Assembly (NCBI GenBank): GCA_964618535.1
Contig: CAZUAW010000004.1
Coordinates: 1-26,520, forward strand
Source of the DNA: an uncultured Thiotrichales bacterium
GTDB taxonomy: Bacteria; Pseudomonadota; Gammaproteobacteria; UWMA-0217
Direction of reading: 5' to 3'
Length of the DNA stretch: 26,520 bases
Shown: positions 1-24,896 of the stretch, piece by piece
Layout of the letters: every line of letters starts with the position of its first letter
How positions within the stretch are numbered: the stretch's first letter is position 1
Position numbers and translations under genes: made by a program
The notes under the pieces: model-generated
What the model was told of the DNA's origin: nothing
Database searches by the model: none
The model's input: only the letters and a program-made list of their open reading frames with translations

Positions 1-12
1 GGTGTTACGCAC

Positions 13-38
13 AAAAAAGGGCGCTTGCGCGCCCTTTT
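13..38 (-). terminator. Rho-independent terminator closing the chemotaxis cluster (possibly bidirectional)
   Basis: Minus strand reads AAAAGGGCGC-GCAA-GCGCCCTTTTTT: GC stem, GNRA loop and U-tract, 26 nt after the stop at 65. The plus strand also has TTTT after the stem. Confidence 0.85.
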
Positions 39-64
39 AAACTAATCAACTTTCCAGCCAATAG

Positions 65-544
65 TTAGGTGGTAACAAAAGAGATGTTACCACTACCGTA
101 ACGGGGGAAATCAATTCCAAAGCCATTGCTCTCAGGCGCTGTGTCGATCATTGCACGAGCATCTTCTGGCAGCTGTGATTCATCAGTGTACATTTTCTCA
201 AGCTTTAGATGCGGTGTGTTATCACCCATAAACATTCTAGAGCAGATGTTAATCAGCTCATGAACATTCTCTTCCATCGCAGGAGTTAAATCACCTGATT
301 CAGCGGCATCTTCAGCCCCACCAGGGGGAAGCATCATTAACGCAGAACCTGCAAATGCAGCAAATGGTGCATCACACATTGTTGCTGCAACAGGTTTTCC
401 TTCAGGGTCTACAAACAATCCATAAACTTTATTCTCAGACAATGGCTTGGCACTCGATTCTGTGACATCTAAATTATTACCATAAAGCATACCAAAAGAA
501 TTTAATAAATCTTTCGACTTTGGCAAAATATAATTAGTGGACAT
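65..544 (-). CDS. CheC/CheX-like protein (putative CheY-P phosphatase), uncharacterised family
   Basis: 159 aa with SD AAGGAG before the ATG. Contains EENVHELINICSRMF, carrying the E-x2-N motif of CheC/CheX/FliY phosphatases. Lies directly downstream of a single-domain response regulator. Confidence 0.55.
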   Translation of the reverse strand: MSTNYILPKSKDLLNSFGMLYGNNLDVTESSAKPLSENKVYGLFVDPEGKPVAATMCDAPFAAFAGSALMMLPPGGAEDAAESGDLTPAMEENVHELINICSRMFMGDNTPHLKLEKMYTDESQLPEDARAMIDTAPESNGFGIDFPRYGSGNISFVTT

Positions 545-589
545 ACTTAACTACTCCTTATAAAAGTTTCTTATTTTTTTAAAAAAGGC

Positions 590-952
590 CTAAACAATAT
601 ATTTATCAAGCTCAGCTGAAAAAGAATCCGCTGTAAAAGGCTTAGCTATCAAAAAATTTGCACCTGCATCTATAGCCCGAGACCGCATTTCACTGGTAGC
701 TTCCGTAGTAACGAAACCAAAAGGAACTTTAAGTCCTTCTACATTTAAAGCCTCTAAAAATTCAGGGCCATTCATGTTTGGCATATTCCAGTCGCATAGA
801 ATTAAATCTGGCTTATCTTCACGAACGCTTTCCAACGCCTTTAATCCATCTTCTGCTTCAGCGTAATCATGATCTTCATAACCAGCATCACGAAGGGTCT
901 TTTTTACAATCATGCGCATAGCGCGGCTATCATCGACAATAAGTATATTCAT
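590..952 (-). CDS. cheY: CheY-like single-domain response regulator
   Basis: Start reassigned to the ATG at 952 (MNILIVDDS) with SD GAGG. Receiver residues present: DD, CDWNMP (phospho-Asp), FVTTE (Thr), AKPF (Lys). 120 aa, no output domain. Confidence 0.85.
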   Translation of the reverse strand: MNILIVDDSRAMRMIVKKTLRDAGYEDHDYAEAEDGLKALESVREDKPDLILCDWNMPNMNGPEFLEALNVEGLKVPFGFVTTEATSEMRSRAIDAGANFLIAKPFTADSFSAELDKYIV

Positions 953-1046
953 TAATATTTTCCTCTTGGTATTATTATGTCCAATTTTTAAGTAGCATTT
1001 CAGTTCAGCCGCCACTCTCCAGCTGAGATTTTTATTTTAATTTATA

Positions 1047-1074
1047 AAGGGCGTCTCTAAATAGAGGTGCCCTT
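1047..1074. other. Intergenic stem-loop between cheB and cheY-like
   Basis: AAGGGCGTCTCTA-AA-TAGAGGTGCCCTT: 13-bp stem with two G-U pairs on the plus strand (A-C mismatches on the minus strand). No U-tract follows it on the minus strand. Confidence 0.45.
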
Positions 1075-1087
1075 AACGATATTGACA

Positions 1088-2194
1088 CTATTGCATTGCT
1101 ATCCTACCCAACGCGGCTTCTGCAATTTGAGACAGCGGAAGTACTTTGTCTACCGCACCTCTTTTTACAGCTTGGCCTGGCATCCCCCAAACAACGCTGG
1201 ACTCTTCATCCTGAGCAATCGTATACGCTCCAGCATCATGTAACTGCTTCATCTCGCGTGCACCGTCATCCCCCATACCCGTTAGCATAATCCCCAGCGA
1301 CTTTGAACCCACTGCTGTCAAGACCGACTCAAATAGTTTATCGACAGAAGGCTTATGACAATTAACTGGTGGGCCATCGTCCAAGTGACAAGTTAATTTA
1401 CCATCTATTTTCTTCACAGTAAGGTGCTTGTCTCCCGGTGCGATGTAAATATTCCCCGACATAACCTCTTGTCCTTGTTCTGCCTGATGAACGGTAACTT
1501 TACAAATTGCATTGAGTCGATCTGAGAATGATTTTGAAAATGCTGCAGGAATATGCTGCGTAATAACAATCGGTGGAGAAGTCTTTGGGAAAGGTGCCAA
1601 TAATTGTTTTAATGCTTCAGTACCACCGGTAGACGCACCTATCGCTATTAGATTATTCGACTCAAACAAGGAACGAGTTGATGAAAGCGAGTTTGTTACC
1701 AATTTTGGCTCAGGATTTATTACATCAGGATGGTAAGCTTTCACATTCGCTTTGCTGGCCGTTTTTACTTTAGAAATAATTTCAATGGCATAAGCATCCA
1801 TTGCTGTAATTGCATTACCTTCTGGTTTATGAATACACTCTACCGCACCAACTTCTAGAGCATCTAAAGTAACCGAAGCGCCTTTTTTTGTTAGTGTAGA
1901 AACCATCACTACTGGCATAGGCCGAAGTCGCATAAGGTTTTTTAAAAATTGAATTCCATCCATACCTGGCATTTCGACATCTAACGTTATCACATCAGGA
2001 TTATACTTCTTGATCTTTTCTCTCGCGTCAAATGCGTCAACTGCGGTCGCAACCACTTCGATACTCGGATCTTGAACGAGTATTCTCTCGATCACACTAC
2101 GCATTAGCGCACTATCGTCGACAACGATGACTTTAATGCGTCCCTCATTGTAATCTTCCCCCAAATAACCACTTATTCTTAACCCAGCTCCCAC
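1088..2194 (-). CDS. cheB: Chemotaxis response-regulator methylesterase CheB
   Basis: N-terminal receiver (IKVIVVDDS...TLDVEMPGMDG). Esterase triad motifs IGASTGG, TQHIP, LTGMGDDGA. Exact start uncertain (see findings). Confidence 0.96.
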   Translation of the reverse strand: MGAGLRISGYLGEDYNEGRIKVIVVDDSALMRSVIERILVQDPSIEVVATAVDAFDAREKIKKYNPDVITLDVEMPGMDGIQFLKNLMRLRPMPVVMVSTLTKKGASVTLDALEVGAVECIHKPEGNAITAMDAYAIEIISKVKTASKANVKAYHPDVINPEPKLVTNSLSSTRSLFESNNLIAIGASTGGTEALKQLLAPFPKTSPPIVITQHIPAAFSKSFSDRLNAICKVTVHQAEQGQEVMSGNIYIAPGDKHLTVKKIDGKLTCHLDDGPPVNCHKPSVDKLFESVLTAVGSKSLGIMLTGMGDDGAREMKQLHDAGAYTIAQDEESSVVWGMPGQAVKRGAVDKVLPLSQIAEAALGRIAMQ

Positions 2195-2246
2195 GCTACA
2201 CCTGCTTTTTAAAATTTAACCAAACAACACTTACCATTCATGCTTA

Positions 2247-3077
2247 CTAAGATTTTTTATAGATTGTTTTACTCAGTAATCTAAATTTATCGGTAATATT
2301 ATTAAGTGTTTCGGAATGACCAATAAAAAGAGTTCCATCATCATTTAACTGCTTCGAAAAACGCTCGAATAATTTTGTTTGCGTAGGTGAGTCAAAATAA
2401 ATAACCACGTTGCGACAAAAAATCACATCAAATGCGCCTTGCATAGGCCATACTTCCATCAAATTTAATGGATTAAAAGTAATCAAAGATCTTATCTCTG
2501 GAGAAACTCTAACTTTCCCCTGATTATCACCTGCGCCTTTTTGAAACCAACGGTGCAACCGTAATTTTGACACTCCGGAAAGTCTATCTAGGTCATACAC
2601 ACCCAGTTGTGCATGTGTCACCATGGTCGTATCTAGGTCAGAAGCCAGAATTTTAAAATCCCAAGATTGAATATTGGGTATGACTTCTTGAGCGACCATT
2701 GCTATTGAATACGCTTCTTCACCAGAAGAGCATCCTGCAGACCAGATTCGTATTTTTCTATCTTTCCGACGCTGCTTGATGAGCTCTGGAAAAAGAGTGG
2801 TTCTCAAATACTCAAAATGATGTTCTTCTCTAAAAAAAGATGTCAAATTCGTCGTTATCAAATTTGAAAACTTTTCCAGCTCGGCAGCAGACCCTTTCTC
2901 AAGTTCTTCCCTATAGTCTGAAAAACTGTTTAACCCAAGGTCTCGAACTCGCCTCGATAGGCGACCATATACAAGATCTCGTTTATTTTCCCCGATATGG
3001 ATACCTGTGTGAGTATTAATAATTTCTCGAAACTTACTAAACTCATTATCTGAAAACTCAAATGTAGCTGCTTCCAT
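2247..3077 (-). CDS. cheR: Chemotaxis protein methyltransferase CheR
   Basis: ITTNLTSFFREEHHF, IWSAGCSSGEEAYS, FDVIFCRNVVIYF, LFIGHSE motifs; SD GAGGA. Confidence 0.97.
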   Translation of the reverse strand: MEAATFEFSDNEFSKFREIINTHTGIHIGENKRDLVYGRLSRRVRDLGLNSFSDYREELEKGSAAELEKFSNLITTNLTSFFREEHHFEYLRTTLFPELIKQRRKDRKIRIWSAGCSSGEEAYSIAMVAQEVIPNIQSWDFKILASDLDTTMVTHAQLGVYDLDRLSGVSKLRLHRWFQKGAGDNQGKVRVSPEIRSLITFNPLNLMEVWPMQGAFDVIFCRNVVIYFDSPTQTKLFERFSKQLNDDGTLFIGHSETLNNITDKFRLLSKTIYKKS

Positions 3078-3138
3078 TATACAAAACTTCCTCAGACCTA
3101 TTTTAGTCGTACTTTAGTTAGTCTCTCGGTAACTTACG

Positions 3139-3405
3139 TTATACCGCCAAACTATCAGTGCCTGTCATCGCCAAAAATCGATTCAGATTTTCAGAAACGC
3201 CGCTACTCTTTACCGAGCCACCTTCCGACTGAACAGACTTGGACCAGGCCATAAGCAACTGAATACTTCTCATATCTGGACTTTCTACTGAAGAAAAATC
3301 TAACTCTACGTTCACTCCATTTAGCGCGCCATCCAATAGATCGTCTTTAAGCGTGCTTAAAGTAGATGCAGTACATTTACTTTCTAGTTTTATTATATTT
3401 TTCAT
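3139..3405 (-). CDS. STAS-domain protein (chemotaxis-cluster type)
   Basis: Probable start ATG at 3405 (MKNIIKLES), 88 aa. VELDFSSVESPDMRSIQLL matches the STAS pattern lD-x-x-x-V-x-x-x-D-x-x-x-lQLL. Confidence 0.75.
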   Translation of the reverse strand: MKNIIKLESKCTASTLSTLKDDLLDGALNGVNVELDFSSVESPDMRSIQLLMAWSKSVQSEGGSVKSSGVSENLNRFLAMTGTDSLAV

Positions 3406-3524
3406 ATTTTTATTATTATTGATTAAATATCTTGAGTTAATGTACATTCCAGTAAAAATCACTGTCGATTCTCATCGCTTATGCCACGAAAACCGACAGC
3501 TTCATTAAAACTACTTGGGTTATT

Positions 3525-5801
3525 TTAAAAACTATTCCAATTAGCACTATCATTGACTGCAACAGGTTGACTGAAGTCATCACTCAATCCATTTCCTGAA
3601 CCATTCTTCACTTCATCTTCAACATCTCCAAGTAATGCTACAACCTTACCGGACGCCCTTTCGATGTTTGAATAGCGGTTGGTCGCTTCAGCATCATTCC
3701 CACCTTCTTTTAAGCCAATGATGTTTTTAATTTCGGCATGCATCTCGGCGTGTTCTTTTTCCAGCTCCTGCATTGCAGCAGAAGAGCCATACTTAGTCAT
3801 GCCATCAGAATAGATCCACTTACCTAAATCACAATCCCTGTGCGACACAGCTTGATCCATTGTCAATGACTCTTTGCCCTGCAAAAACCCTCGTATGCGG
3901 TTTTTCCATGAAAGATGCTTCGACTTAGCAGCGGCAAAATCAACCCCCCCAGAAGATTGGGGTGAAGCGGTTTCAGACCACGGTCGAGCTGCTGAACGTC
4001 TGTCAACAGAACTAGAAGAATGATTTCCTACTGATACTGAAAAGAAACTCATTTTCTCTGACAATGATTCAGACTCACTGTCCAGAGAAGCACTTAAGCC
4101 CGCTACTTTTTCGACCATTCTTGTATTTTGCTGGGTCATTTGATCCATTTTTAGCATCGCTTGATTGACCTGCTCTATGCCAATGGATTGCTCCTGGTTC
4201 GCTGCATCGATTTCAGAAATAATATGGCTCACTTTCTGAGATGCTTCGACGATTTCAGCTAGGGATTTGCCGGTGTTGTCTACTAGAGCCGTTCCCGCAT
4301 TCACTTTTGAAACACTGTCTTCAATCAGTTCTTTGATTTCTTTGGCAGCTTCTGCGCTACGTTGCGCCAGGTTTCTTACCTCTGATGCAACCACTGCAAA
4401 ACCTTTACCCTGATCTCCAGCATGCGCTGCTTCCACCGCTGCATTTAGCGCCAATAAATTGGTTTGAAATGCAATTTCATCAATCACACTGATAATGTCA
4501 GAAATTTTCGCGCTGGAGGTATTGATCTCGGCCATTGCACTGACAGCCGCCGAAACCACGTCGCCACCTTGTTCTGCCTTTAATCGAGCGTTGTTAGACA
4601 GTTCATTCGCCTGACGAGCATTTTCCGCATTGTGTCTAACCGTACCAGTAATTTCCTCTACGGCAGCGGCTGTTCTTTCAAGACTGGAAGCCTGCTCGGT
4701 GGTTCTTCTTTGTAGATCAATATTGCCAGTGGAGATATCTCTGGCACCTTCATGAACAGAACGAGAACTTTCTGAGACACTACCTAGCACTTCGTTTAAT
4801 TTATCAACACCATTGTTCAAGCCATCCTTAAGCGTTGCATAGATGCCACCATAGTCATACTCAATTTTCTGATTTAAATCGCCTCTGGAAATACTGCTGG
4901 CCACTTTTGAAGCTTCCGAGACGACATGTTCATTGACCGACAAGACATCGTTGATAACCTGCCCCAAAGACATCAAGTATCCCGTTTTCCCATCTAAAGA
5001 AATACGCTTTGAAAGATCTCCTTCAAGTGCCCGATCAGCGATTTTAGCAATTTCACTTTCAATTGCATTCTCATCAGTATGATCCTTCCATTCTACAAAG
5101 AACCCTATTTTTTCTCCCTTTGCATCAGTTAAAGGATGCGCTGTAAAACCGACATCTACATCACTGACAGAAAATTTGGCAGTATGAGAAGTAGTAAGAT
5201 TCGCTAACATACCTCGTTGTTTTTGTGGGTTTTTATGAAAAATGTCAATATTCGAGCCAACGAGGGTAGCAATATTAAAATTTGGAATTCCTTTCTGCAA
5301 TTCATTTTGAATATTACCGAACAACTGTAGTAAGGATGGATTAACATAGCTGATATTAAAATCTTTATCTGCCATCATAATTGCAGACTCAGCGTGATCA
5401 AGGGCCGTCTTGAATACCTCTGAGCTTCCTGCGACTAGAGATGCGTCAACAGCGTGACTAGATAGGTTTTTCATCGCTAACGACATGCCACCGTACAAAC
5501 TCCCTAACTCCTTAATATCAAAATCTTCAGATTCAATCTCAGCAGCAGACTTATTAAGCAACTCTCTAATCTCATAGGTTTCTGCGCCGATCCATTTTTT
5601 CACCTTGCTGAGTACCACATAGCTCATTGCGGCAACGCTTGCCCCGCTAACGATACCTGCCGACAACAACACCCACATAGCAGAAGAGCTTGCTGTAAAC
5701 AATATGGCACCAACCGAGAACACTCCTACAATTAATATAAACTGTGTGAGTGATAAGAACAGTGGTGAGATTTTGATATTTTTAATTTGATAGTTTGACA
5801 T
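3525..5801 (-). CDS. Aer2-like methyl-accepting chemotaxis protein: 2 TM - PAS(heme) - HAMPs - MA - CZB - pentapeptide
   Basis: Two N-terminal hydrophobic segments. PAS with [11 protein letters not shown] and VEWKDHT (Aer2-like His and Trp). Signalling tip [33 protein letters not shown] motifs [20 protein letters not shown]. Ends NWNSF. Confidence 0.93.
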
Positions 5802-5860
5802 TACTGACTCCGTAAGACTGGATATTCCCCATGAAAATATTAATTGTTACTGTTAGTTCT

Positions 5861-6391
5861 CTAGTGAACTTTGACTGGCTGATCATCTAAAGCTTGCTCT
5901 GCTAATAACGTAGAAATATCAAGCAATATCACCATTTTTTCATCCAGCGTTGTGAGCCCTTTAATATATTCTGCATCAACACTGGCATGTACATTAGGTG
6001 GCGGCTCTATTGCTTCAAATGCAACGTTATAGACCTCTGCGACCGCATCAACAACGACACCAACGACCCGCTCTTCACCATCGGCAACCACTTTGATCAT
6101 GATAACAACGGTAGTCTCAGTAAAGGCTTTATGCGGCAAACTAAAGCAAGTTCGTAATTCGATTACCGGTACAATGGTACCGCGTAAATTAATCACGCCT
6201 AAAATATGTTCTGGTGTATTTGGGATAATCGTCGTACCGTCCCAGCCCTTAATCTCCTGCACATCGAGTATGTTAATTCCATACTCTTCCTCACCAAGGA
6301 AAAATGTTAGATACTGACTAGCATCTTCCCCTACACTCATTGCCATATCGTGAGTTTGATCTACGATTGAAGCATCCAGATTAAAATCCAT
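5861..6391 (-). CDS. cheW: Chemotaxis adaptor CheW
   Basis: QYLTFFLGEEEYGINILDVQEI and ILGVINLRGTIVPVIELR. ATG at 6391 preferred over GTG at 6397 because of spacing from SD GGGGAG. Confidence 0.96.
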   Translation of the reverse strand: MDFNLDASIVDQTHDMAMSVGEDASQYLTFFLGEEEYGINILDVQEIKGWDGTTIIPNTPEHILGVINLRGTIVPVIELRTCFSLPHKAFTETTVVIMIKVVADGEERVVGVVVDAVAEVYNVAFEAIEPPPNVHASVDAEYIKGLTTLDEKMVILLDISTLLAEQALDDQPVKVH

Positions 6392-6401
6392 TTCCACTCC
6401 C

Positions 6402-8531
6402 CTATGCAGCTTCCCGTTGCGTATTATTCACTTTCCCGGCTTCACCCAAGCGATTACGTATGAGCCCGGCAGCATCAATAATCAGCGCTACTTCCCCATC
6501 ACCTAGAATGGTGGCCCCCGAAAATCCATCAATTTTTCTAAAATTCCGCTCTATACTCTTAATCACGACTTGTTGCTGGCTGAGTAATTCATCGACAAAG
6601 AATCCCACACGTCTTCTTTCAGCCTCAACAACGACCAATAGCCCCTCATCAAAAACACAGCCGCTATCATCCAGACCAAATACTTCCTTGAGCCTGAAGA
6701 TCGGGATGTACTCGTCTCTTAATCTATATAGATCGGGTTGTCCCTTGTAATGCTTAACCATCTTTGGGTCGATCTGTAGTGATTCGTCGATAGATAGCAT
6801 CGGAATCACATACTGGCTATCTCCAACCTTGACTAATTGGCCATCAATAATCGCAAGTGTCAACGGTAAGGTAATTCTTAAAGTGCTTCCTTTTCCTTCC
6901 TCAGACATAACAAATACGTCACCCCCAAGGTCGGATATATTACGTCTCACCACATCCATTCCAACGCCACGACCTGACACATCACTAACAATTTCAGCCG
7001 TTGAGAAACCAGCTTGAAAAATTAAATTATTAATCTCATCATCATCGAGTTGTTGATCAGGAGAAACAACCCCACTTTCAATCGCTTTAGCAAGAATTCG
7101 TTGTTTATTTAACCCTGCTCCATCGTCAATTACATCAATGACGATATTTCCTCCTTCATGACACGCATTTAATTTCAGCAGACCTGTTTCAGATTTACCT
7201 GCTGCTAATCGAATTTCTGGTGTTTCCAATCCGTGGTCGAGTGAGTTTCTTACCAAATGAACCAATGGGTCACCAATTTTTTCGAGCACTGTTTTATCCA
7301 GCTCCGTACCTTCCCCAGTAATTACCAGTTCTACTTTCTTATTCAATTTATTACTTAAATCTCTTACCAGCCTGGGAAATCGATTAAACGAACTACTGAT
7401 CGGTAACATTCTAATCTGCATGGCTGTTTGTTGAAGCTCTCTAGAATTTCTTTCCAATTCATTAAGACCATCGCGTAGAACATCAATTTGTGCCATATCA
7501 AAATCTTCGCCAAACTGGCCCAACATCGACTGAGTAATCACCAATTCTCCAACCAGGTTAATTAGCGCATCTATCTTACTGATTGATACTCGTATCGAAC
7601 CTTCGGGTTTTCCAGCCGTCTTCTTGGCAACTGACTTTACAGATTTTTCCACAGCGTCAGTTTCAACTTTTGCTGGTGACGAAACACCCTTTGGAGTGAG
7701 TTCTTCAGGCTGTACAATTACCTGCGATACTGCTTCATCTTGAGGCTGATTTTTATTTTGTTCTGTTGGCTCTATCCTGCTACTTGAAGTTTCGACTACA
7801 CTCCCTTGCGTGTCGTTAAGTGCGGTGATTTCTATATCAGAATCACTATCTACCCAGGAAAAAATATCCTTAATTCTCTGTAACTTAATATTTCCCAGTA
7901 ATATTGCATTCCAACTTAAATGTAACTGTTCAGGATTCAAGTCTTTTAACGCGGGCACATTATCTGTTCCACAAGTCACCTTAAGATCACCCAGATCAGA
8001 CAGTGCTTCAAATACAGCCAATGGGTCCAATCCTTTTTGGATCGCATCAATACCAGGGGAAAATTTAATTCTCCAACCTTCGTCAGTTGCGTCTGAATCA
8101 ACGTCATGAGATTGATTCTCCACAACACTAGAAGACTCGTCACCCTTATCTTCAAGCATCTGCTCCAAACGCTTTTTTAAATTTGAAACTCGGGCAGAAT
8201 CTATTGCTTCTTCGTCCTTTGTGGCGTTAATCATTTCAGTTAAACAATCAACCGATTCAAGTAACAAATCTACCGCAGACGTAGTGACATCTCTATCACC
8301 GGAACGCATTTGATCTAACAGCGTTTCCATCACATGTGTAAAACTAGCAATTTCGTTAAAATCAAATGTGGCAGAACCTCCTTTAATAGAATGTGCTGCG
8401 CGGAAGATGGTATTAATTTCCTCCATATCCGCTGAACCTGGTGCTAGCGCAAGCAAACCAGACTCCATAATTTCAAGCCCTTCAAAACACTCTTCAAAGA
8501 ACACTTCGTAAAATTCTGATAAATCGGACAT
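6402..8531 (-). CDS. cheA: Chemotaxis histidine kinase CheA
   Basis: HPt IFRAAHSIKGG; dimerisation LINLVGELVITQSML; HATPase HLVRNSLDHG, DDGAGLN, SGRGVGMDVV; C-terminal CheW domain. ATG at 8531 has SD AAGGAG. Confidence 0.97.
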   Translation of the reverse strand: MSDLSEFYEVFFEECFEGLEIMESGLLALAPGSADMEEINTIFRAAHSIKGGSATFDFNEIASFTHVMETLLDQMRSGDRDVTTSAVDLLLESVDCLTEMINATKDEEAIDSARVSNLKKRLEQMLEDKGDESSSVVENQSHDVDSDATDEGWRIKFSPGIDAIQKGLDPLAVFEALSDLGDLKVTCGTDNVPALKDLNPEQLHLSWNAILLGNIKLQRIKDIFSWVDSDSDIEITALNDTQGSVVETSSSRIEPTEQNKNQPQDEAVSQVIVQPEELTPKGVSSPAKVETDAVEKSVKSVAKKTAGKPEGSIRVSISKIDALINLVGELVITQSMLGQFGEDFDMAQIDVLRDGLNELERNSRELQQTAMQIRMLPISSSFNRFPRLVRDLSNKLNKKVELVITGEGTELDKTVLEKIGDPLVHLVRNSLDHGLETPEIRLAAGKSETGLLKLNACHEGGNIVIDVIDDGAGLNKQRILAKAIESGVVSPDQQLDDDEINNLIFQAGFSTAEIVSDVSGRGVGMDVVRRNISDLGGDVFVMSEEGKGSTLRITLPLTLAIIDGQLVKVGDSQYVIPMLSIDESLQIDPKMVKHYKGQPDLYRLRDEYIPIFRLKEVFGLDDSGCVFDEGLLVVVEAERRRVGFFVDELLSQQQVVIKSIERNFRKIDGFSGATILGDGEVALIIDAAGLIRNRLGEAGKVNNTQREAA

Positions 8532-8776
8532 AATTAACTCCTTGTCACTTAAGGTCAATCCCTTTTCTACTCTCAAATTCCGAGCAGAATTTACATTTGT
8601 TAAAATTAATCATAGTGAGAAGATAGTCTAATCTATTTTCTAGAAAAGCTGCCTTCTCACCACGTAGATTGTTAATCTTCTTTAGAGAACCGTCCATGTT
8701 GCGCTGGCTCTGTTTTCTCTACTGTCATTTTTTATTCAACTTCGTTTATAAAGCCCTTTCAATATTTCCCAGCACA

Positions 8777-11515
8777 CTATCCTGCTTTTCTTTGCCACGG
8801 ACGCGAAACACTTCGTTTATCATTGGTTGATAACGACTTGTTCTGATTGCTATGTGGATCCAATTTAAAATAAGCCACCAGATTAGATAGCTTTTGTGAT
8901 TCTTCCAAGAGTGAACCACTTACATCTGAGGTTTTACTCACCAGACTAGTATTTTGTTGGAGTGAATTATCAAACTGAATCACCGCGTTGTTAACTTGAT
9001 CCATGCCAATGGTTTGTTCTGCTCCTGCTGATGAAATCTCGTCCATATGTTGACTAACTTTAGAAACTGTTAGAATGATTTCATCCAGATGATGCCCAGA
9101 AACATCTACTAACTGAGAACCTTCTTCTATCTTATTAGCCGTATCTTTAATTAAAACATTAATTCGTTTTGCCGCTTCTGAACTTCTCTGAGCCAGATCT
9201 CTGACTTCTGTTGCGACGACGGCAAATCCACGCCCTTGCTCACCAGCATGCGCAGCCTCAACAGCAGCATTAAGTGCCAACAGGTTTGTTTGAAAAGCGA
9301 TTTCTTCGATAACTGTTGTAATATCCGTTATTTTTGCACTTGCCTTGTTAATCTCTGCCATAGCCTGAGTGGTGTTAAGAACAGCATTACCGCCTTTTTC
9401 AGCCTGATCCTTTGCTTTTTTCGCTAGTAGATTAGCCTCATCAACATTTTCACCATTTCGTCTAACTGTTCCTGTGATTTCTTCCATGCTGGCAGCGGTT
9501 TTTTCAATATTGTTGGCTTGCTCGCCAGTCCGTTGTTTCAAACTCTTGTTCCCGTCAACAATGTCACCGACATTATCGCGCATGCTCTCAGCAGAATGCC
9601 TTATTTTGCTAATGACATCTTTCAGCTGATCCACAGTCTCATTTGCATTTTGCTTTAATTCATTAAATGACCCTTGGTAAGTCCGAGATACAGTCTCAGT
9701 CAGTTCACCTTTTGCCAGCGCGCTAAGTACTCGGCCAACGTCACCAACGACTTGTTCATTAACATCCAACAAATCATTGATTGAACCAGCCAGTCTACCG
9801 GCAAAGCCATTACCTTCTTTCGCTATTTGCAATCTTCCACTTAAATTACCGCTCTGAGCCTGATGAACAATTTTGTTGATGGAGTTTTCTATTTTCAACT
9901 GCTCAGTACGATCATCCCATTCAAGTACAACTCCAATTTTATTCCCTTCATCATCCAGTATTCGATTGGCAGTAATACGGAAAGTTAAGTTGCCGATTTC
10001 TTCGTCTGCTACAGATGTTACACCCAGTTGCATTAGCTGATGTCTATTGAGCGATTTAATTGCTTTAAAAATATCAATACTGTTTCCAACCAATCCTTCT
10101 GATTCAAATTCAGACAACGCCAACTTAAACTCGTTCTGCCTAGCTCGAAATGTCGTCATTAAAGAACCATTCAAATAAATTATTTCGAAAGACGAATTAA
10201 TGACCATGACATTGGTTTGCACATTATCCAACGCCTGCTTTATACGTCCCGATTCAATGGATTTTTGGCGTTCTTCAGCAATCTGCTGACGGAGCTGGCT
10301 TTGCATTGAATCGAGCGATTTCAATAGTCTCCCTGTCTCGTCATCTGCACCAGGTTCAATAGTATTGGAGAAATTACCACCGGCGATAGAACGGGCAATG
10401 TCAGCTGCTTTCTTTAATGAACCAATAATTTGCCCTGACATCAGCCATGTCAGTAAAGAGACGAAAGCCAAAAACCCAATTCCGGTTATCACTGCCCGTA
10501 CCAGCTTTGTATAGTAAAGCGTACTAACATCATCCAGAGTAGCGTTGAGATGATCCGTCTGAAATTGAATTAATTCATCAAGGTCTAGGTGCAGACGATT
10601 TAGAGCTGGCATAACCTCCGTCTCCACAAGATACGCATCCATTCTCCATGTTTCACCACCATGTAATTTAATAAGCTCATTAGTCTTAAGAAAAACAGTC
10701 TGGGAAACTTTTTCTATACTCTCTAAAGAATCAACTTGATCAAGTGTCAAATCATCAGACCTCCCTTTAAGGCGTGACATATTTTGTTCAAAACTGATTC
10801 TGTAGGCATCCAATTCAACCAGAGAAGCCTCACTTCTAAACGCCAGAAAAGCACGTATCGAATTCATGATATTCGTCCAAGAATACCTCACTTCGTTAAT
10901 ATCATTTAAGATCTCTTTACGCAGTGGCGTAGCTTCTTCTTCCAACTCAGTAAAAAGCATTTTCCCAAGCATCTGCAATACTTCTTTACTACGTGGACTC
11001 ACTTCAGCTGCGGCAAGCTCTCTGGCTGGAAAATTCTTTAAATCATTCTCAGAAATTTGGATTAATTTCCCGTCCAGTTCTGAATATGCCTGCAAATTAG
11101 TTTGTAACGACTGAAGAAGGACTGAAGTTTCATTATTACCAGTGGAAATCAGAAGCGCTTCAATCGAATCCAATTCTTTCTCGAGCAGTTGAATCTTTTT
11201 ATGCGATTTTTCCAGTTGCGCTGGGGCTTTACTAAATAAATAAAATCCCATCGACCCTGACGATGCTTCCAACAATTCTTTTGCCTTATTTAAATGCATT
11301 AAGGCTGGCTGCACGTCAGTAACAAAATGATCAACCTGTTTATGTACTGTTGATAGAGCAGAAATTTCATCAAGACTGATAGAGACGATAGCAATGGCAG
11401 TCACCGAAAAACTAATCCAGAGTTTTGATTTAAGTGACAATCCCATAATCCAGTTTTTCAATTTGTTTTGTTTTCCTTGAACGGTCAATTTTTGATTAGT
11501 GCTTTTTGTTTGCAT
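8777..11515 (-). CDS. Methyl-accepting chemotaxis protein: TM - ~290 aa helical periplasmic sensor - TM - HAMP - PAS - HAMPs - MA
   Basis: TM1 [18 protein letters not shown]2 [65 protein letters not shown]...VLEWDDRT, tip [30 protein letters not shown]. Confidence 0.93.
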
Positions 11516-11722
11516 GCTCTTCCCTGTCTCAAACTGACTGATGTTGCGAGGTATTATTACTTTTAAATAAGTACGTAACGTGAATTAATTCTATGTTTTC
11601 ATGTTTCACTGGTAATTTATTGATCTATGGCATCTAGATAGAGACGAGGAGTAAAATCTACAGCGCTTAGAGTGCTTTCGAGTAACTTCTTTTCCAGTTT
11701 TCGCCTTTAAGTAATTTCAAAT

Positions 11723-12682
11723 TTACGCGGCTTTTTTATGCTTCATCACCAATCTAGATATAGTCGACGCCAGTTCTGCCGGATTAAGCTTAGGAACGTA
11801 GGCATCAACACCAATATTCTCACCCAAACTTTGATTACTATGCGCTGATAGCGATGAATGCATAATCACTGGAATTCCCGTAAATCTCGGATCACTTTTA
11901 ATTTTTTTAGTTAGCACATAACCATCCATGCCAGGCATTTCAATATCAGTAATGATGCAATTCACATCAGCTTGTAATGGATGGCCATTTTGTTCCGCCC
12001 GGTCGGCAAGCGTGTTCAGCTGCCGCCACGCCACCTCTCCATCTACCTCGCTGGCATAGCTAATTCCGAGGTGATCTAGCACCCGTCTCATCTGCCCTCT
12101 GGCGACGCGGGAATCATCACAAAAGAACACCTTAATGCCTTGTAAACTATCCCGTTCAATGCCATTGATATTGGCTTCTTCACGGCTTCCAAGCACATCT
12201 GACAAGACTTTTTCCACGTCCAGTAACATCAAAGTGCGAGCCTCACCCATTTGATAGATACCTGTCAGTAGCCCGGATTGATTGCCATCGGGCTGCGCTG
12301 GCGGCAATTTAATATCCCCCCAGGCAAGTCGCTCTATGGTTTCTACTTCGTGTGCTAAAAGCCCCTGAACCTGCCGATTGTATTCTGTAATTATGAGTAT
12401 TTTTGCAGGCTCTTCGGATTCGATACCACAAAACTTAGGCAAATCAATCACAGGAATAGATTGCCCTCTCACGGTAACAATCCCTACCAGGCAATCTTGA
12501 GCATTGGGCAAAGGTGTAATATCAGGTATCGCCATTAACTCTCTAACCTTAAACACGTTTATGCCAAACACTAGTTCTTTATTGGTCTTTTTATCTTTGC
12601 CTAAACTAAACAGCAGCGCTTCCAGGTGATTACTACCAGCAAGTTGGCTGCGATCTTCGATGGATTGCATTAGGTCATTCAC
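11723..12682 (-). CDS. cheV: Chemotaxis protein CheV (CheW + receiver)
   Basis: SQLAGSNHLEALLFSL, FGINVFKVRE, TVRGQSIPVIDL; receiver CDDSRVAR...ITDIEMPGMDGY. GTG start with SD GGAGA. Confidence 0.93.
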   Translation of the reverse strand: MNDLMQSIEDRSQLAGSNHLEALLFSLGKDKKTNKELVFGINVFKVRELMAIPDITPLPNAQDCLVGIVTVRGQSIPVIDLPKFCGIESEEPAKILIITEYNRQVQGLLAHEVETIERLAWGDIKLPPAQPDGNQSGLLTGIYQMGEARTLMLLDVEKVLSDVLGSREEANINGIERDSLQGIKVFFCDDSRVARGQMRRVLDHLGISYASEVDGEVAWRQLNTLADRAEQNGHPLQADVNCIITDIEMPGMDGYVLTKKIKSDPRFTGIPVIMHSSLSAHSNQSLGENIGVDAYVPKLNPAELASTISRLVMKHKKAA

Positions 12683-12844
12683 AGATCAATCTCCACAATA
12701 TTTTATAGCGCTGAGCGTCGTATCAAACAATCGACGAATGTCACAAAACCAGCGTTAATGAATTAGATTGATATAGGAGCAAGATTCACGCCAGATCATG
12801 GCGGTCATCAGATGATTCTCGTAGCAGGGGAACAAAACAATATT

Positions 12845-12864
12845 GGTGAGACGAACGTCTCATC
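12845..12864 (-). terminator. Candidate terminator hairpin downstream of der
   Basis: Perfect inverted repeat TGAGACG-AA-CGTCTCA, followed on the minus strand by AATATTGTTTTG. The U-tract is imperfect. Confidence 0.45.
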
Positions 12865-12871
12865 GAAGATA

Positions 12872-12907
12872 AATTACTAGTGTGGAATTACTAGTGTGGG
12901 AATTACT
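12872..12907. repeat. 14-bp tandem duplication AATTACTAGTGTGG x2 plus a partial third copy overlapping the der stop
   Basis: Read directly: 12872-12885 and 12886-12899 are identical, then G, then AATTACT (12901-12907). Confidence 0.9.
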
Positions 12908-14300
12908 TACTGAGTCTGCGCTCGCGATCCTGCTCGTATTTTTGTCGCGGAGTGAGCTTGGTACGCTTCTGTTTAGTCGCGTAGGGATTCTCACCAGTTT
13001 TAAATTCCAGTCGAATTGGCGAACCAACAACTTTTAATTTATCGCGGAAGAAGTTAATCAGATAGCGTTTATAAACATCGGGTACAAATTTGGTTTGATT
13101 GCCATGTAAGACGATCACCGGAGGCCGCCGACCGCCTTGATGAGCGTAGCGGAGTTTGATGCGTCGGCCACGCACCAGCGGTGGCTGATGACGAGCAATC
13201 GCCTCTTCCAGTAATCGGGTCAATACGGTGGTGGAGAGTTCTATTCTGGCAGAGTTATGGGCACGCTTAACCGCATCATAAAGCAGGCCTACGTTCGAAC
13301 CATGCAGCGCTGAAATATTAAAACGCTCGGCAAAATCAAGAAACGGCAATTTTAGTTTGTACTGGGACATGCGGCTTTCACGCTCTTCCGTACTTAATCC
13401 ATCCCATTTATTCAGCACCACAATAATCGCACGACCAGCACGTAGCGCCATGCCAATGAGGTGCACATCCTGATCCGTAATCGCCTCGTGCATATCCAGC
13501 ACGTTAATCACAACATCGGCTTTTTCAATGGCATCCAGCGTTTTCACGACGCTGAATTTCTCAACTGTTTCTTTCACCTTGCCACGACGACGCACGCCAG
13601 CAGTATCAATCAGCGTGTATTTTTGACCCTCGCGCTCAAACGGAATGTAGATGCTATCGCGGGTGGTGCCAGGGATATCGCTAACAACCACACGGTTTTC
13701 ACCCATAATACGATTGACCAGCGTAGATTTTCCAACATTGGGTCGGCCAATAAACGCAATCCGAATGTCTTTGCGATCGCGCTCACTCTCACGAGATTCT
13801 TCACTGTCTTCCTGCGCATCTTCGCCCAGCACCGCGTGAATAAGCTGGGTCACGCCTCGGCCATGCGAGCTGGCGATGGGTAACGGGCCATCGAACCCAA
13901 ATCCATAGAACTCTGTCAGCGCCTGATCGGCTGCAATGCCATCGGTTTTATTCACGGCAAGAAAAACAGGTTTTCCCACACGGCGTAATTGAGCGCCGAT
14001 AACCTCATCGGCAGGAGTTAGACCAGCACGACCATCCACCAGCCAGATAATCCGGTCAGCCTCATCAATTCCCAAACGAGTTTGCCCCATCATCAACGCG
14101 TTAAGCTGATCAGACTCATCGGTGATACCACCAGTATCAATGACAAAATAGTCGCCACCCAGTCGGCCAACGCCGTATTGGCGATCTCGCGTCAGACCAG
14201 GAAAGTCAGCCACCAACGCATCTCTGCTGCGAGTCAGTTGATTAAATAAGGTGGATTTACCGACATTGGGACGGCCTACCAGAGCGATAACGGGTTTCAA
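12903..14300 (-). CDS. der: Ribosome biogenesis GTPase Der (EngA)
   Basis: Two G domains (GRPNVGKS twice; DTGG and DTAG; NKTD and NKWD) plus KH-like C-terminus. Start placed at TTG 14300 (MKPVIALVGRPNVGKS), 465 aa. Confidence 0.97.
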   Translation of the reverse strand: MKPVIALVGRPNVGKSTLFNQLTRSRDALVADFPGLTRDRQYGVGRLGGDYFVIDTGGITDESDQLNALMMGQTRLGIDEADRIIWLVDGRAGLTPADEVIGAQLRRVGKPVFLAVNKTDGIAADQALTEFYGFGFDGPLPIASSHGRGVTQLIHAVLGEDAQEDSEESRESERDRKDIRIAFIGRPNVGKSTLVNRIMGENRVVVSDIPGTTRDSIYIPFEREGQKYTLIDTAGVRRRGKVKETVEKFSVVKTLDAIEKADVVINVLDMHEAITDQDVHLIGMALRAGRAIIVVLNKWDGLSTEERESRMSQYKLKLPFLDFAERFNISALHGSNVGLLYDAVKRAHNSARIELSTTVLTRLLEEAIARHQPPLVRGRRIKLRYAHQGGRRPPVIVLHGNQTKFVPDVYKRYLINFFRDKLKVVGSPIRLEFKTGENPYATKQKRTKLTPRQKYEQDRERRLSK

Positions 14301-14417
14301 AGGAGTCAGGGTTGCTGGGAAGTAAATCGAAGTATGTATCAGAGAGCCGCATGGAGCAATCGTATACGCTATATAATGAGTGTAACTTATGAGTGATGTA
14401 TACCAACAATAGACTGA

Positions 14418-14447
14418 TTGGTATTCTAGCCACCGCATTGTCATAAT
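14418..14447 (+). promoter_or_regulatory. Putative sigma70 promoter for degP/mucD
   Basis: TTGGTA-N18-CATAAT with extended -10 TG (14439-14440) and a GC-rich discriminator GGCGCGC. Motif match only. Confidence 0.4.
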
Positions 14448-14471
14448 GGCGCGCTTTCAACGCGCTTTCAA
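14443..14471 (-). promoter_or_regulatory. Putative sigma70 promoter for der
   Basis: Minus strand TTGAAA-N17-CATTAT. Motif match only. Confidence 0.4.
14450..14471. repeat. 11-bp tandem duplication CGCGCTTTCAA x2
   Basis: Read directly: 14450-14460 and 14461-14471. Confidence 0.9.
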
Positions 14472-14533
14472 TATGGCAGCCATTCGTAGCACACTAACTT
14501 ACACACCTAAATATAGCGTTTCTGGAATTAATT

Positions 14534-15988
14534 ATGCACATTCACACCTACCTACCTCGGCTTCTAGCCACGCTATTTATGTTCTGGATAACTGCCAGCC
14601 CAACGTTAGCCAGCGTTCAGGGACTACCCGATTTCACAGCCATCGTCGAAAACAACGGTGCTGCTGTGGTCAATATCAGTACCACCTACAAAGCTAAGCC
14701 TCATGGAATGTCAGGCAATTTTGGGCTACCCGATTCCTCAGAATCAGAGCTTCTTAATGACTTTTTGCGCAAATTTCTGGAGCAACACCCAGACATGCAA
14801 AAACCCCCACACGGCTCACAACCAGACGATGATGGTGAAAATTTTGAATCCAATTCACTCGGCTCCGGCTTCATCATTTCTGCGGATGGCTATGTGGTCA
14901 CTAATCATCATGTGATTGCCGATGCTTCCGAGATTGTCGTCAGAATGAGCAATCGTAAAGAATTTACCGCAGAAGTTATCGGCTCTGATCCACGCTCTGA
15001 TGTCGCCCTGCTTAAAATCGAAGCCACCAACTTACCCATATTGAAACTCGGCAGTGCCGATAAACTCAAAGTCGGTGAATGGGTGCTGGCGATTGGCTCA
15101 CCTTTTAATTTCGATCATTCAGTTACAGCTGGAATTATCAGTGCCAAAGGACGTAGCCTGCCCTCTGAGCAATATATCCCTTTCCTCCAGACTGATGTGG
15201 CGATTAACCCCGGCAACTCCGGTGGACCATTGTTTAATCTCGATGGCGAAGTGGTCGGCATCAACTCTCAAATCTACAGCCGTACTGGTGGATTTATGGG
15301 CGTATCATTTGCCATTCCGATTGAAGTCGCGATGGAAGTGGTTGAGCAACTTAAACAGCATGGCAAGGTAACGCGCGGCTGGTTGGGCGTTTACATTCAA
15401 GAAATCACCAGTGATCTGGCTGAATCATTTGGCATGAAACGGCCTCGCGGCGCGCTGGTTGCTCAGGTACTCGGCGAAAGTCCCGCTGAAAAGTCCGGTG
15501 TTGAAGTGGGGGATGTTTTACTCAGCTTTAATTCACATGGTCTCTCGCACTCAACAGACTTGCCTCCGCTGGTTGGCCGTGTGCCCATCGGCAACAAAGC
15601 AATCCTCAAACTGTTACGCGATGGTAAAGAACTGGAGCTTGATGTCGTCATCGAAGCACTGCCTGATGAAGACAAGTTAGCATCCAGCCGACGCAAAGCA
15701 GGTGAGAACAAACAGACGCTACTGGGTCTGGTCGTTAGCCCACTTACCGATGAAATCAGGGAAAAGGCAAGCGTCTCTCGTGGAGTGATCGTTGACAAGG
15801 TCTCCTCTGGTCCGGCTAAAAAAGCCGGTATTCGCAGTGGCGATATTATTGTATCGCTCAACAACCAATCGGTTAATGATGTCGAAAATTTGGATAAAAT
15901 TGTTAAAGACCTGCCAAAAGATCGCTCCATTGCGGTACTTGTACAGCGTGATGGCTCACCGATTTTCTTACCCTTAAAGCTTGAATAA
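14534..15988 (+). CDS. Periplasmic serine endoprotease DegP/DegQ/MucD (Do family)
   Basis: Signal peptide; catalytic motifs TNHHV, RSDVAL, NPGNSGGPL; two PDZ domains. Confidence 0.95.
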   Translation: MHIHTYLPRLLATLFMFWITASPTLASVQGLPDFTAIVENNGAAVVNISTTYKAKPHGMSGNFGLPDSSESELLNDFLRKFLEQHPDMQKPPHGSQPDDDGENFESNSLGSGFIISADGYVVTNHHVIADASEIVVRMSNRKEFTAEVIGSDPRSDVALLKIEATNLPILKLGSADKLKVGEWVLAIGSPFNFDHSVTAGIISAKGRSLPSEQYIPFLQTDVAINPGNSGGPLFNLDGEVVGINSQIYSRTGGFMGVSFAIPIEVAMEVVEQLKQHGKVTRGWLGVYIQEITSDLAESFGMKRPRGALVAQVLGESPAEKSGVEVGDVLLSFNSHGLSHSTDLPPLVGRVPIGNKAILKLLRDGKELELDVVIEALPDEDKLASSRRKAGENKQTLLGLVVSPLTDEIREKASVSRGVIVDKVSSGPAKKAGIRSGDIIVSLNNQSVNDVENLDKIVKDLPKDRSIAVLVQRDGSPIFLPLKLE

Positions 15989-15996
15989 TTATTCGA

Positions 15997-16251
15997 TTGG
16001 CTGCTCGGTTTTTGATCACACTAACCATTTACTCCCGACTCTACTGTCACCTTTGTGAGGACATGTTGAACGCTTTAAAGAAACTCCAGGCGGTTCACCG
16101 CTTTGATCTTGAAATTATTGATATCGATGAAGATGCAACGCTGCGTGAACGCTTTAACGCCGATGTACCTGTGCTCGCCCGAGGTGAGCAGATTATCTGC
16201 AAACACTTTTACAACGAGCAAGCAATAGCGGATATTCTTCACGATGGATAA
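15997..16251 (+). CDS. Glutaredoxin-like protein
   Basis: [15 protein letters not shown] (CxxC), IIDID, VPVL. Start could be the TTG at 16012. Overlaps the lepA start. Confidence 0.8.
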
Positions 16252-18043: not shown

Positions 18044-18075
18044 TTTTATACACAATAAGGATACTGAGAATTTAA

Positions 18076-18912: not shown

Positions 18913-18939
18913 TTTAGAAAGGAACTATGGAGTACTAGG

Positions 18940-19296
18940 ATGTTAAAAAAACAACAGGGAATGGGCATGGTTAGCTGGATTTTATCACTGTCTGTTTTAG
19001 GCTTGGTTTTCATCTTTGGCTTAAAATTATTCCCCATTTACTACGACTACTTTGCGGTGCAGGATATTGTTAAAGATGTCGCCAGAGAATATCGTGGTAA
19101 AAAAGTCGGCCAGATCAAGCTCTGGAAAACCATCAAAAAGCATCTCAATGTGAATGATATCAACTACATCACACCTGATAATTTCAAAGCACTGACTACC
19201 AAAGATGGCACTGAACTCATTTTGAAATACGATGCCAGAACCACCTATCTGTGGAATATTGATCTGCTGGTAAAACTAGAGTCGCGAGCGAAATAG
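18940..19296 (+). CDS. DUF4845-family protein (pilin-like N-terminus)
   Basis: KKQQGMGMVSWILSL N-terminus, then LKLFPIYYDY. Conserved position after lepB. Confidence 0.8.
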   Translation: MLKKQQGMGMVSWILSLSVLGLVFIFGLKLFPIYYDYFAVQDIVKDVAREYRGKKVGQIKLWKTIKKHLNVNDINYITPDNFKALTTKDGTELILKYDARTTYLWNIDLLVKLESRAK

Positions 19297-19323
19297 TCTT
19301 TTCCAGAGAGCGTATCTCGCCTC

Positions 19324-19332
19324 TGCTATAAT
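19324..19332 (+). promoter_or_regulatory. Extended -10 promoter for the 113-aa hypothetical gene
   Basis: TGCTATAAT, a perfect TGn-TATAAT, ending 26 nt before the GTG at 19359. Confidence 0.55.
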
Positions 19333-19358
19333 TCTGACAAACCATCATCGGAATACAC

Positions 19359-20461: not shown

Positions 20462-20572
20462 TATAGATACATTTTAATAGGGTTGCCAACGATGTAAGAC
20501 TGTTGGCCTGTACTTTTTAGCTGAACGCTCGGGACTAGATTTATCACGCCCTATCAAGCATAGTCATAAACT

Positions 20573-23577: not shown

Positions 23578-23626
23578 GCGGCCGATATGACGGGCAGAGG
23601 CTCCGTGTTTGGTACCTCAGCAGAGG

Positions 23627-24880: not shown

Positions 24881-24896
24881 TAGCAAGTTTTGGGTA

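Follow-up and report, generated by a model that had tools for sequence, protein, structure and literature searches.

The closest described relatives of the system reported here are chemosensory systems of class F7, which have been arranged in a series of evolutionary stages. In the stage 1-2 systems, represented by Che2 of Pseudomonas aeruginosa and the F7 systems of Vibrio cholerae and Vibrio vulnificus, the genes run cheY-cheA-cheW-aer2-cheR-cheD-cheB, and every genome with such an Aer2-bearing F7 system also has a system of class F6 (Ortega et al. 2020, PMC7184735). According to the same scheme, F7 took over the flagellar motor only after recruiting cheY and cheZ from F6, and along the path to Escherichia coli (stages 3-5) cheD and the original F7 cheY were lost, a CheY/phosphatase pair came to lie after cheB and a periplasmic-sensor receptor was gained (PMC7184735). 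The output of the Aer2-containing F7 systems is a long-standing open question; those of Pseudomonas, Vibrio and Shewanella do not steer the flagellum. Here we analyze a che gene cluster of an uncultured Thiotrichales bacterium, located in a 26,520-nucleotide stretch of DNA (assembly GCA_964618535.1, contig CAZUAW010000004.1; hereafter the window) that makes up one entire contig of a draft metagenome-assembled genome (MAG; 2.58 Mb, 419 contigs, 92.8% complete).

The reading we favor, with moderate confidence, is that an Aer2-type F7 operon is the sole pathway controlling the flagellar motor in this lineage, acting by way of a distinct CheY together with a CheX-like protein, in aerotaxis and redox-taxis centered on Aer2 and CZB. 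The family to which the genome belongs is an exception to the published picture of F7 accompanied by F6: the complete F6 system that coexists with ancestral F7 is missing, and no F6 CheA, CheZ or F6-type CheY was found in any of 14 family genomes. If true, this reading would offer a naturally occurring system whose F7 output is directly accessible, from CheA through a defined CheY to FliM, as well as a second, independent route by which F7 has replaced F6. It would also define a candidate new family of CheY-P phosphatases and an unstudied receptor combining a heme PAS with CZB. The organism is uncultured, yet the reading can be tested via established E. coli 'hijack' assays and in vitro phosphotransfer assays.

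Class and gene order of the che cluster

Ten closely spaced che genes occupy positions 65-12682 of the window, in the order cheV-MCP1-cheA-cheW-MCP2-STAS-cheR-cheB-REC-X159-terminator, where MCP1 and MCP2 are methyl-accepting chemotaxis proteins (MCPs), STAS is a STAS-only protein, REC is a single-domain CheY-like receiver and X159 is a 159-residue protein. A preliminary description of this DNA had listed all ten genes correctly and had placed them on one strand, which we confirm: all are on the minus strand and have strong domain matches, apart from X159, which lacks a Pfam match. The order it gave was wrong, however, since the two receptors are split by cheA-cheW.

The same description proposed an F7/Che2-like system, an assignment that is well supported at the sequence level by the heptad class of the receptors, the position of an aer2-type gene between cheW and cheR, the grouping of CheA with E. 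coli CheA and the gene order of relatives. The signaling domain of MCP2 (residues 303-601) aligns with residues 231-529 of E. coli Tsr over 299 residues, and that of MCP1 (635-892) with Tsr 267-524 over 258 residues, in both cases with no net gap, while about 28 extra residues would be needed to match the 44H receptor 2CH7; both receptors therefore belong to heptad class 36H. The cheA gene (6402-8576, minus strand; Pfam Hpt, H-kinase_dim, HATPase_c and CheW) encodes domains P1-P5, with a likely true start at Met16 (8529-8531) and the phospho-accepting His in HSIKG (8391-8393), and its product reaches 604 bits with the enteric CheA model NF007835. We built a maximum-likelihood tree of 33 CheAs comprising those of the family, others of the class, E. 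coli CheA and six F6 CheAs defined by the context flhA-flhF-fleN-fliA-cheY-cheZ-cheA-cheB-motAB. In this tree the window CheA lies in a clade with E. coli CheA (99% support in the Shimodaira-Hasegawa-like approximate likelihood ratio test, SH-aLRT), and the F6 CheAs form a separate clade (100%). The family CheAs are one clade (100% SH-aLRT), as are those of the window's genus (100%). Further features of class F6 are absent as well: no cheY-cheZ-cheA-cheB follows fliA, and the receptors are 36H rather than 40H. Thus the CheA phylogeny, which had been suggested as a check, places the kinase outside F6, and a comparison of gene neighborhoods finds the gene order conserved only in uncultured, uncharacterized relatives.

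Among these relatives, sister genera carry the order cheY-cheA-cheW-aer2-like-STAS-(~175 aa)-cheR-cheD-cheB-REC-X159, which is that of P. aeruginosa Che2 with additions. The window retains cheA-cheW-aer2-...-cheR-...-cheB of the stage 1-2 order, without cheY and cheD. The lack of cheD and of a cheA-proximal cheY had been pointed out before; as both are present in the sister genera, it represents a loss at the level of the genus.

The only flagellar-type pathway of the family

The genome encodes two CheA-type kinases, namely the window CheA and a 1983-residue ChpA in a pilGHIJ-chpA cluster, together with one CheR and one CheB (both in the window) and four MCPs including PilJ. Pfam scans of the genome for CheZ, CheD and CheX (PF13690) gave no match, and no CheY of the upstream or F6 type is found anywhere in the assembly. 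The flagellar locus, fliM...flhA-flhF-fleN-fliA-DUF2802-motA-motB, is contiguous and does not contain the cheY-cheZ-cheA-cheB genes that lie 3' of fliA in 6 of 7 F6-context loci from other families of the class.

To place this inventory in a wider context we used 14 species representatives of the family from five genera, all of them MAGs and several 98-100% complete. FlhA is present in 14 and CheZ in none. In thirteen genomes ChpA is accompanied by just one classical CheA; the remaining genome encodes an additional CheA that is not F6. Identity to F6 CheY does not exceed 44% for the best match in any of the 14, compared with 61-66% between F6 and E. coli CheYs. A che cluster of the same kind occurs in every genome, and the N-terminal CheY-binding motif of FliM, [LI][ST]QDE.DTLL or a close variant, is kept in four of the five genera, which are all those with the FliM N-terminus assembled. 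Because the inventory is the same across 14 genomes, several of them 98-100% complete, the absence of F6 is not an assembly gap. The F7 cluster is the only flagellar-type pathway of the lineage, beside the pilus Chp system. The preliminary description had seen in it a dedicated extra pathway with an output of its own, a view that finds no support here: this is the only CheA/CheW/CheR/CheB/CheY set besides Chp, in a flagellated family devoid of F6, CheZ and F6-type CheY. Since it is the sole set in flagellated organisms, the CheY and CheX-like pair would most simply be the motor output and its phosphatase.

The completeness of the genomes also bears on a different explanation, to which we assign a low probability: REC and X159 could act as a phosphate sink or modulator, with the true motor CheY or an F6 set missing from fragmented MAGs. 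The window's own genome, at 92.8% completeness in 419 contigs, leaves room for such a gap, the second, upstream CheY of the sister genera (with Trp106) could be the real output, and phosphate-sink CheYs are known in alpha-proteobacteria. However, the genome's assembly has no CheY of the upstream or F6 type and the family none of the F6 type, no che genes interrupt the contiguous fliA-motAB, and the inventory does not change in family members that are 98-100% complete. Moreover, cheV is found in all four genomes of the genus, and upstream cheY in none of the three with the region assembled.

Two observations on the flagellar genes of the family concern genera other than that of the window. FliM of genus g4 (L077-L080, L086) has a long acidic N-terminal extension before the CheY-binding motif. 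A second full-length FHIPEP (FlhA-like) gene is found in G004, G006, G007, G009, G011 and G012 and, judged by its sequence, would belong to a second flagellar or type III export system.

Genus-level changes and the path to E. coli

Three genes kept by the sister genera have been lost from the window's genus, namely upstream cheY, cheD and the ~175-residue gene, and two have been gained, cheV and MCP1. Upstream cheY is absent from all three genus genomes in which the region upstream of cheA is assembled (the window and two relatives), and cheV, which all 4 genomes of the genus carry, was not found in the family's other genera. By analogy, these changes appear to parallel stages 3-5 on the way to E. 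coli, made with different parts.

The likeness to the stage 1-2 systems of P. aeruginosa, V. cholerae and V. vulnificus is extensive. It includes an Aer2-type receptor (PAS-heme, di-HAMP, 36H, xWxxF tail) between cheW and cheR, the core cheA-cheW-aer2-cheR-(cheD)-cheB, an associated STAS gene of the anti-sigma antagonist type and, in the sister genera, the retained upstream cheY and cheD. In contrast to these systems, that of the window has no co-resident F6, CheZ or F6 CheY, its Aer2-type receptor is membrane-anchored with a C-terminal CZB, it lacks an mcpA-like receptor and a serine phosphatase, and a CheY and CheX-like pair has been added after cheB, in addition to the genus-level changes, in which cheD and upstream cheY disappeared and cheV and a receptor with a periplasmic sensor were acquired. 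With the stage 5 system of E. coli and Salmonella, the window shares the F7 CheA clade, 36H receptors with a pentapeptide, the loss of cheD and upstream cheY, a CheY and (here predicted) phosphatase pair after cheB and at least one periplasmic-sensor receptor. Both are sole systems, and control of the flagellum, established for E. coli and Salmonella, would extend to the window lineage. CheV is also present in Salmonella. The two differ in that the output pair of the window is a separate CheY lineage with a CheC-fold protein rather than a recruited F6 CheY/CheZ, and in that the window keeps Aer2 and STAS and has no flhDC or motAB at its front. A literature search on Aer2, CheX and Thiotrichales returned nothing relevant.

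Taken at face value, this looks like an independent takeover of the motor by F7 in the window lineage. We put at about even the chances of a fuller scenario in which this vent family (its habitat is described below) repeated an E. coli-type repurposing after loss of F6, using an Aer2-type F7 system, a new CheY lineage and a new CheC-fold phosphatase family, after which, in one genus, cheD and the earlier F7 CheY disappeared and CheV and a periplasmic-sensor receptor were added.

The predicted output pair REC and X159

REC (590-1015, minus strand; Pfam Response_reg 2.8e-27) has a likely start at Met22 (950-952) and its phospho-accepting Asp at 791-793. It retains D12, D13, D57, T87 and K109, that is, all residues of the phospho-chemistry, and is the best CheY match in its own genome, with a score of 79 bits against the CheY equivalog model (cut-off 189 bits).

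X159 (65-544, minus strand) has no sequence match in Pfam, in NCBIfam or, at E up to 10, in a profile search of the PDB. Its family comprises 54 clusters, all of about 160 residues and all annotated as hypothetical, and is found in 13 of 400 sampled genomes of the class. In 10 of 11 loci from other families the gene lies directly 3' of a REC-type gene, and the loci are always beside cheB, cheR or cheA. The AlphaFold2 model of X159 (predicted local distance difference test, pLDDT, 88.7) was compared with known structures using Foldseek and VIA-align. Over residues 6-159 it shares the fold of the CheX/CheC/FliY phosphatases and the FliM middle domain, with Z of 11-13.4 for FliM-middle, about 10 for CheC/FliY and 9.3-9.8 for CheX, the next unrelated fold reaching only 3.8, and its size is CheX-like. 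The invariant residues include N93, E96 and N99 (248-268) and P111; the E-x2-N pair at 96 and 99, which resembles that of these phosphatases, is invariant in 30 sequences and lies on a long helix, and as in that group the gene is beside a CheY. Among language-model feature neighbors that have a Pfam family, the family is CheX. The model thus indicates that X159 represents a sequence-orphan family with a CheC/CheX/FliM fold, and the earlier suggestion that the last gene is CheC/CheX-like is borne out by the fold, without a Pfam CheC/CheX match. We infer that REC and X159 are a CheY with its own CheX-like phosphatase, the activity being predicted.

In one locus outside the family (L045, G014:C75:1-18000), REC and X159 end a che cluster of a different CheA class (802-residue CheA, cheW, MCP, cheB, cheR), in a genome with three further CheA-type kinases. 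The module is therefore not tied to F7.

Several observations weigh against motor control through this pair. In REC, Y106 is replaced by Leu, so that the aromatic switch is lost, and the FliM-facing surface is changed at I95 (Arg), V108 (Ala) and K119 (Glu). REC and its orthologues form a 99/99 clade in the CheY tree, apart from both the F6/E. coli CheYs and the F7 upstream CheYs, the latter having Trp at position 106 in the sister genera. As REC is neither an F6-type nor an F7-upstream CheY and has an altered FliM surface, its binding to FliM is a prediction. For X159, none of 30 family members matched Pfam CheX (PF13690) or CheC (PF04509) at E up to 10. Compared with the CheC signature D/S-x3-E-x2-N-x22-P, the -4 position varies (E/S/D/G) and the invariant Pro is at +12 instead of +22. 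The model is also structurally closer to the non-catalytic FliM middle domain than to CheX. Given its failure against the Pfam models and the exact signature spacing, we do not class X159 as a CheX family member. More generally, the F-class call was made with one named F7 reference (E. coli) and context-defined F6 genomes, not with MiST class hidden Markov models, all genomes are MAGs and the system is known from sequences alone, and the Aer2-containing F7 systems that have been studied exert no direct flagellar control (PMC10107281).

Some of these points feed the main competing explanation, which we regard as unlikely but deserving of serious consideration: the cluster could be an ancestral-type F7 pathway for stress or another function, as in P. 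aeruginosa, V. cholerae and Shewanella oneidensis, with REC and X159 (and STAS) as a non-motor output and a flagellum that lacks CheA control or is otherwise regulated. The Aer2/F7 systems described in the literature leave the flagella unsteered and have links to partner switches, either RsbU/RsbV or CrsR/CrsA, and a STAS gene lies inside this operon; Leu106 and the changed alpha4-beta5-alpha5 surface of REC, like the resemblance of X159 to a non-catalytic FliM domain, would fit an output of this kind. Nevertheless, this explanation leaves the motor without any other CheA or CheY in 14 family genomes, even though the CheY-binding peptide of FliM is conserved across the family, and it fits poorly with the full taxis-style adaptation set of the operon (CheR, CheB, pentapeptide, CheV). 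In addition, the genome yielded no partner of the RsbW or RsbU type, the phospho-site of STAS is Met in the window's genus, and the genus shows the steps of the enteric takeover, having lost cheD and upstream cheY and gained a periplasmic-sensor receptor.

Under the favored reading of motor control, CheA would phosphorylate, as sole output, the stand-alone CheY encoded by REC, which would act on FliM, and the E-x2-N site of X159 would terminate the signal by dephosphorylating REC, in place of CheZ.

Receptors, inputs and adaptation

MCP2 (3525-5801, minus strand; 758 residues; Pfam MCPsignal 2e-53, CZB 5.5e-13) begins with two hydrophobic segments with nearly no loop between them, a transmembrane hairpin without a periplasmic domain, followed by an Aer2-type PAS, di-HAMP, the 36H signaling domain, the CZB domain and a C-terminal tail. 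Its residues 129-337 match the P. aeruginosa Aer2 PAS-HAMP structure 3VOL (PAS/HAMP4-5; E=4e-43), the PAS and both HAMPs being covered. We aligned the PAS (residues 125-250; 5052-5429, minus strand) residue by residue to 3VOL and 4HI4 of P. aeruginosa Aer2 and to 6CEQ, a chain deposited merely as 'methyl-accepting chemotaxis protein'. In the Aer2 PAS, the E-eta His is the heme ligand and O2 is stabilized by the I-beta Trp (PMC10107281). MCP2 has both, as His189 in NIDIFHKNP (5235-5237) and Trp238 in VEW (5088-5090), followed by the di-HAMP and 36H kinase-control domain that are characteristic of Aer2.

The CZB of MCP2 (residues 629-695; 3717-3917, minus strand) contains KHLSW (3906-3920), CDLGKW (3816-3833) and HAEMH (3738-3752). 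Its His/Cys/HxxxH set is complete, as in the CZB receptors TlpD of Helicobacter pylori and McpA of Salmonella, and presumably corresponds to the 3His/1Cys zinc site, including CxLGxW, known from DgcZ and TlpD. A precedent for membrane anchoring may be the membrane-bound Aer2 of Leptospira. MCP2 differs from these receptors in joining a heme-PAS and CZB in one protein, an unstudied architecture: PAS, HAMP_2, MCPsignal and CZB occur together in at least 50 protein clusters from public genomes and metagenomes, none of them characterized.

MCP1 (8777-11515, minus strand; 912 residues; Pfam 4HB_MCP_1, HAMP, HAMP_2, MCPsignal 5e-47) consists of a first transmembrane segment, a periplasmic four-helix-bundle (4HB) sensor (residues 26-186 and beyond), a second transmembrane segment, HAMP, an Aer2-like PAS, di-HAMP, the 36H domain and a tail with RRSVSRPW. 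Its PAS (residues 421-545) also matches 3VOL (E=2.6e-34), and Lys484 (10064-10066) occupies the position of the heme His, which is missing in MCP1 orthologues as well. Thus, both PAS-containing receptors of the preliminary description have an Aer2-like PAS, but only MCP2 carries the heme His (FHKNP). The motif in the tail, [ED]RRSxxRPW, follows the signaling domain in MCP1, MCP2 and a receptor on contig C36 of the same genome, and, with one exception (the second receptor at a g5 locus), is present in every F7-cluster receptor of the family that was examined; it is thus not the private motif of the window receptors for which it had been taken.

The C36 receptor (C36:416-2731, minus strand; L016) is a third 36H receptor, with an Aer-type N-terminal PAS (NHNLVRHPDMP), a transmembrane segment and HAMP, followed by a second PAS, Aer2-like but lacking the heme His, then di-HAMP and the tail ERRSKSRPW. 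Judged by their domains, the three receptors appear to share an Aer2-derived core and to differ in their inputs. All three have EAAHAG at the hairpin tip (4422-4439 and 9233-9250 in the window), with His in place of a near-invariant Arg; F7 receptors outside the family have EAARAG. A 900-residue protein encoded elsewhere (C176:1726-4425, minus strand; L015) has dCache_1 and another Cache-like domain joined to a CheW domain at the C-terminus, with no MCP signaling domain, and this sensor-CheW fusion could feed the single F7 array.

The intact motifs make the three inputs named in the preliminary description plausible, namely O2 through the Aer2 PAS, Zn/redox through CZB and a periplasmic signal through 4HB. 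In the mechanism we propose, O2 would bind the heme of the MCP2 PAS, and the Zn-thiolate of CZB on the same receptor would add an oxidant/Zn input. MCP1, with its periplasmic four-helix bundle, would act as a further sensor whose coupling probably runs through CheV, acquired along with it, and the unlinked third receptor would supply an Aer-type PAS input with flavin adenine dinucleotide. The three 36H receptors would govern the single CheA through CheW (5861-6397, minus strand; Pfam CheW 1.4e-36) and CheV (11723-12682, minus strand; 319 residues; a CheW domain, Pfam 8.8e-31, plus a receiver, Response_reg 2.4e-12).

For adaptation, the cluster provides cheR (2247-3077, minus strand; Pfam CheR 2.1e-68, CheR_N 4.6e-16) and cheB (1088-2194, minus strand; CheB_methylest 4.1e-64, Response_reg 4e-23). 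MCP2 ends in the pentapeptide NWNSF (3528-3542, minus strand), which reads as an xWxxF docking site for CheR and CheB; its orthologues end in DWDSF, EWTEF or EWEEF, and MCP1 has no such C-terminal pentapeptide. CheB would be phosphorylated by CheA, and CheR and CheB would dock at NWNSF of MCP2.

The STAS protein and a gene of the sister genera

The STAS-only protein (3139-3462, minus strand; Pfam STAS_2 1.3e-11; likely start Met20, 3403-3405) has Met at the canonical phospho-Ser/Thr site (PDMRS). This site is Met or Leu in the window's genus (PDMRS, PDLRC, IDLRW) and Thr (DTAG) in genera g2, g4 and g5. A search of the genome for RsbW-, RsbU- or CrsR-type partners returned only an ordinary histidine kinase and PP2C/PP2C-Ser-Thr kinase proteins (matches to HATPase_c_2 and SpoIIE). 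The protein and its genome thus lack what would mark a partner-switch STAS, a phosphorylatable Ser/Thr and a cognate kinase/phosphatase.

Two kinds of described STAS proteins are similar, in that they are small, STAS-only and encoded inside a che operon, a likeness drawn by description. CheS of Sinorhizobium meliloti binds CheA and tunes CheY traffic (PMC12654446), and RsbV/CrsA-type STAS proteins are linked to F7 clusters, as in Shewanella and Vibrio (PMC9855816, PMC10107281). The window protein differs in its Met phospho-acceptor position and in a genome where CrsR-, RsbU- and RsbW-type partners were searched for and not found. By analogy, and with low confidence, we prefer a CheS-like accessory role, most likely at CheA, or else a remnant of a partner switch.

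Between STAS and cheR, the sister genera have a gene of ~175 residues (L027:4646-5173(-), L033:5012-5542(-), L032:5039-5557(-), L034:4669-5322(-), L031:4752-5336(+)), which was lost along with upstream cheY in the window's genus. Its product has an invariant QFYDRLxQRLxHV and a C-terminal ELF, and is modeled as a long helical hairpin (pLDDT 66). A first guess, an RsbW-like kinase, was rejected. The protein recalls the D-x3-Q site and C-terminal CheY-binding peptide of CheZ; hhalign against E. coli CheZ was negative, and a CheZ-like role remains a lead.

Habitat and genomic context

Cluster DNA of nearly identical sequence is found in hydrothermal-vent and aquatic metagenomes from several studies. 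One run labeled metatranscriptomic and flagged 'probably DNA' contains short contigs that fall on X159, REC, MCP2 and cheV as well as on portions of further genes; such contigs give no expression levels and the parts left uncovered carry no meaning, so that they offer a weak hint of transcription of the cluster. The preliminary description had envisaged life in O2/sulfide gradients. As a habitat this is plausible in view of the vent metagenomes and of a RuBisCO in the genome, but sulfur oxidation is unsupported, as no SoxB and only a weak DsrA match, below threshold, turned up in this 92.8%-complete MAG.

Beyond the cluster, the window contains housekeeping genes (der, degQ-like, lepA, lepB, rnc, era, recO, pdxJ). 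The GC content is 0.38-0.45 in the che part (window 1-12000) and 0.44-0.52 in the housekeeping flank (12000-26520), with a genome mean of 0.459. This difference would fit a cluster that arose as a chimera of assembly or binning, or that was transferred recently as an island with no relation to host motility, an explanation we consider very improbable. The whole stretch, including the der junction, is spanned at 95% identity or more by contigs of four independent runs, which come from three studies and at most three samples, and the cluster is present in every family genome, with a CheA tree that recovers both the family and the genus as fully supported clades (100% each).

Promoter-like sites in the window are at chance level (28, compared with 29.4 in shuffles), as are terminator-like sites (9 compared with 8.6), in a scan that overlooked a hairpin seen by folding at 13-38 (minus strand; GC stem, GCAA loop and U-run; -20.9 kcal/mol, z -2.55). 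This intrinsic-terminator hairpin is directly 3' of X159, and the 3' end of the operon is therefore intact. The contigs of four different MAGs break off within about 60-220 bases past X159, which suggests a repeat or hard-to-assemble element just beyond the terminator of the che operon.

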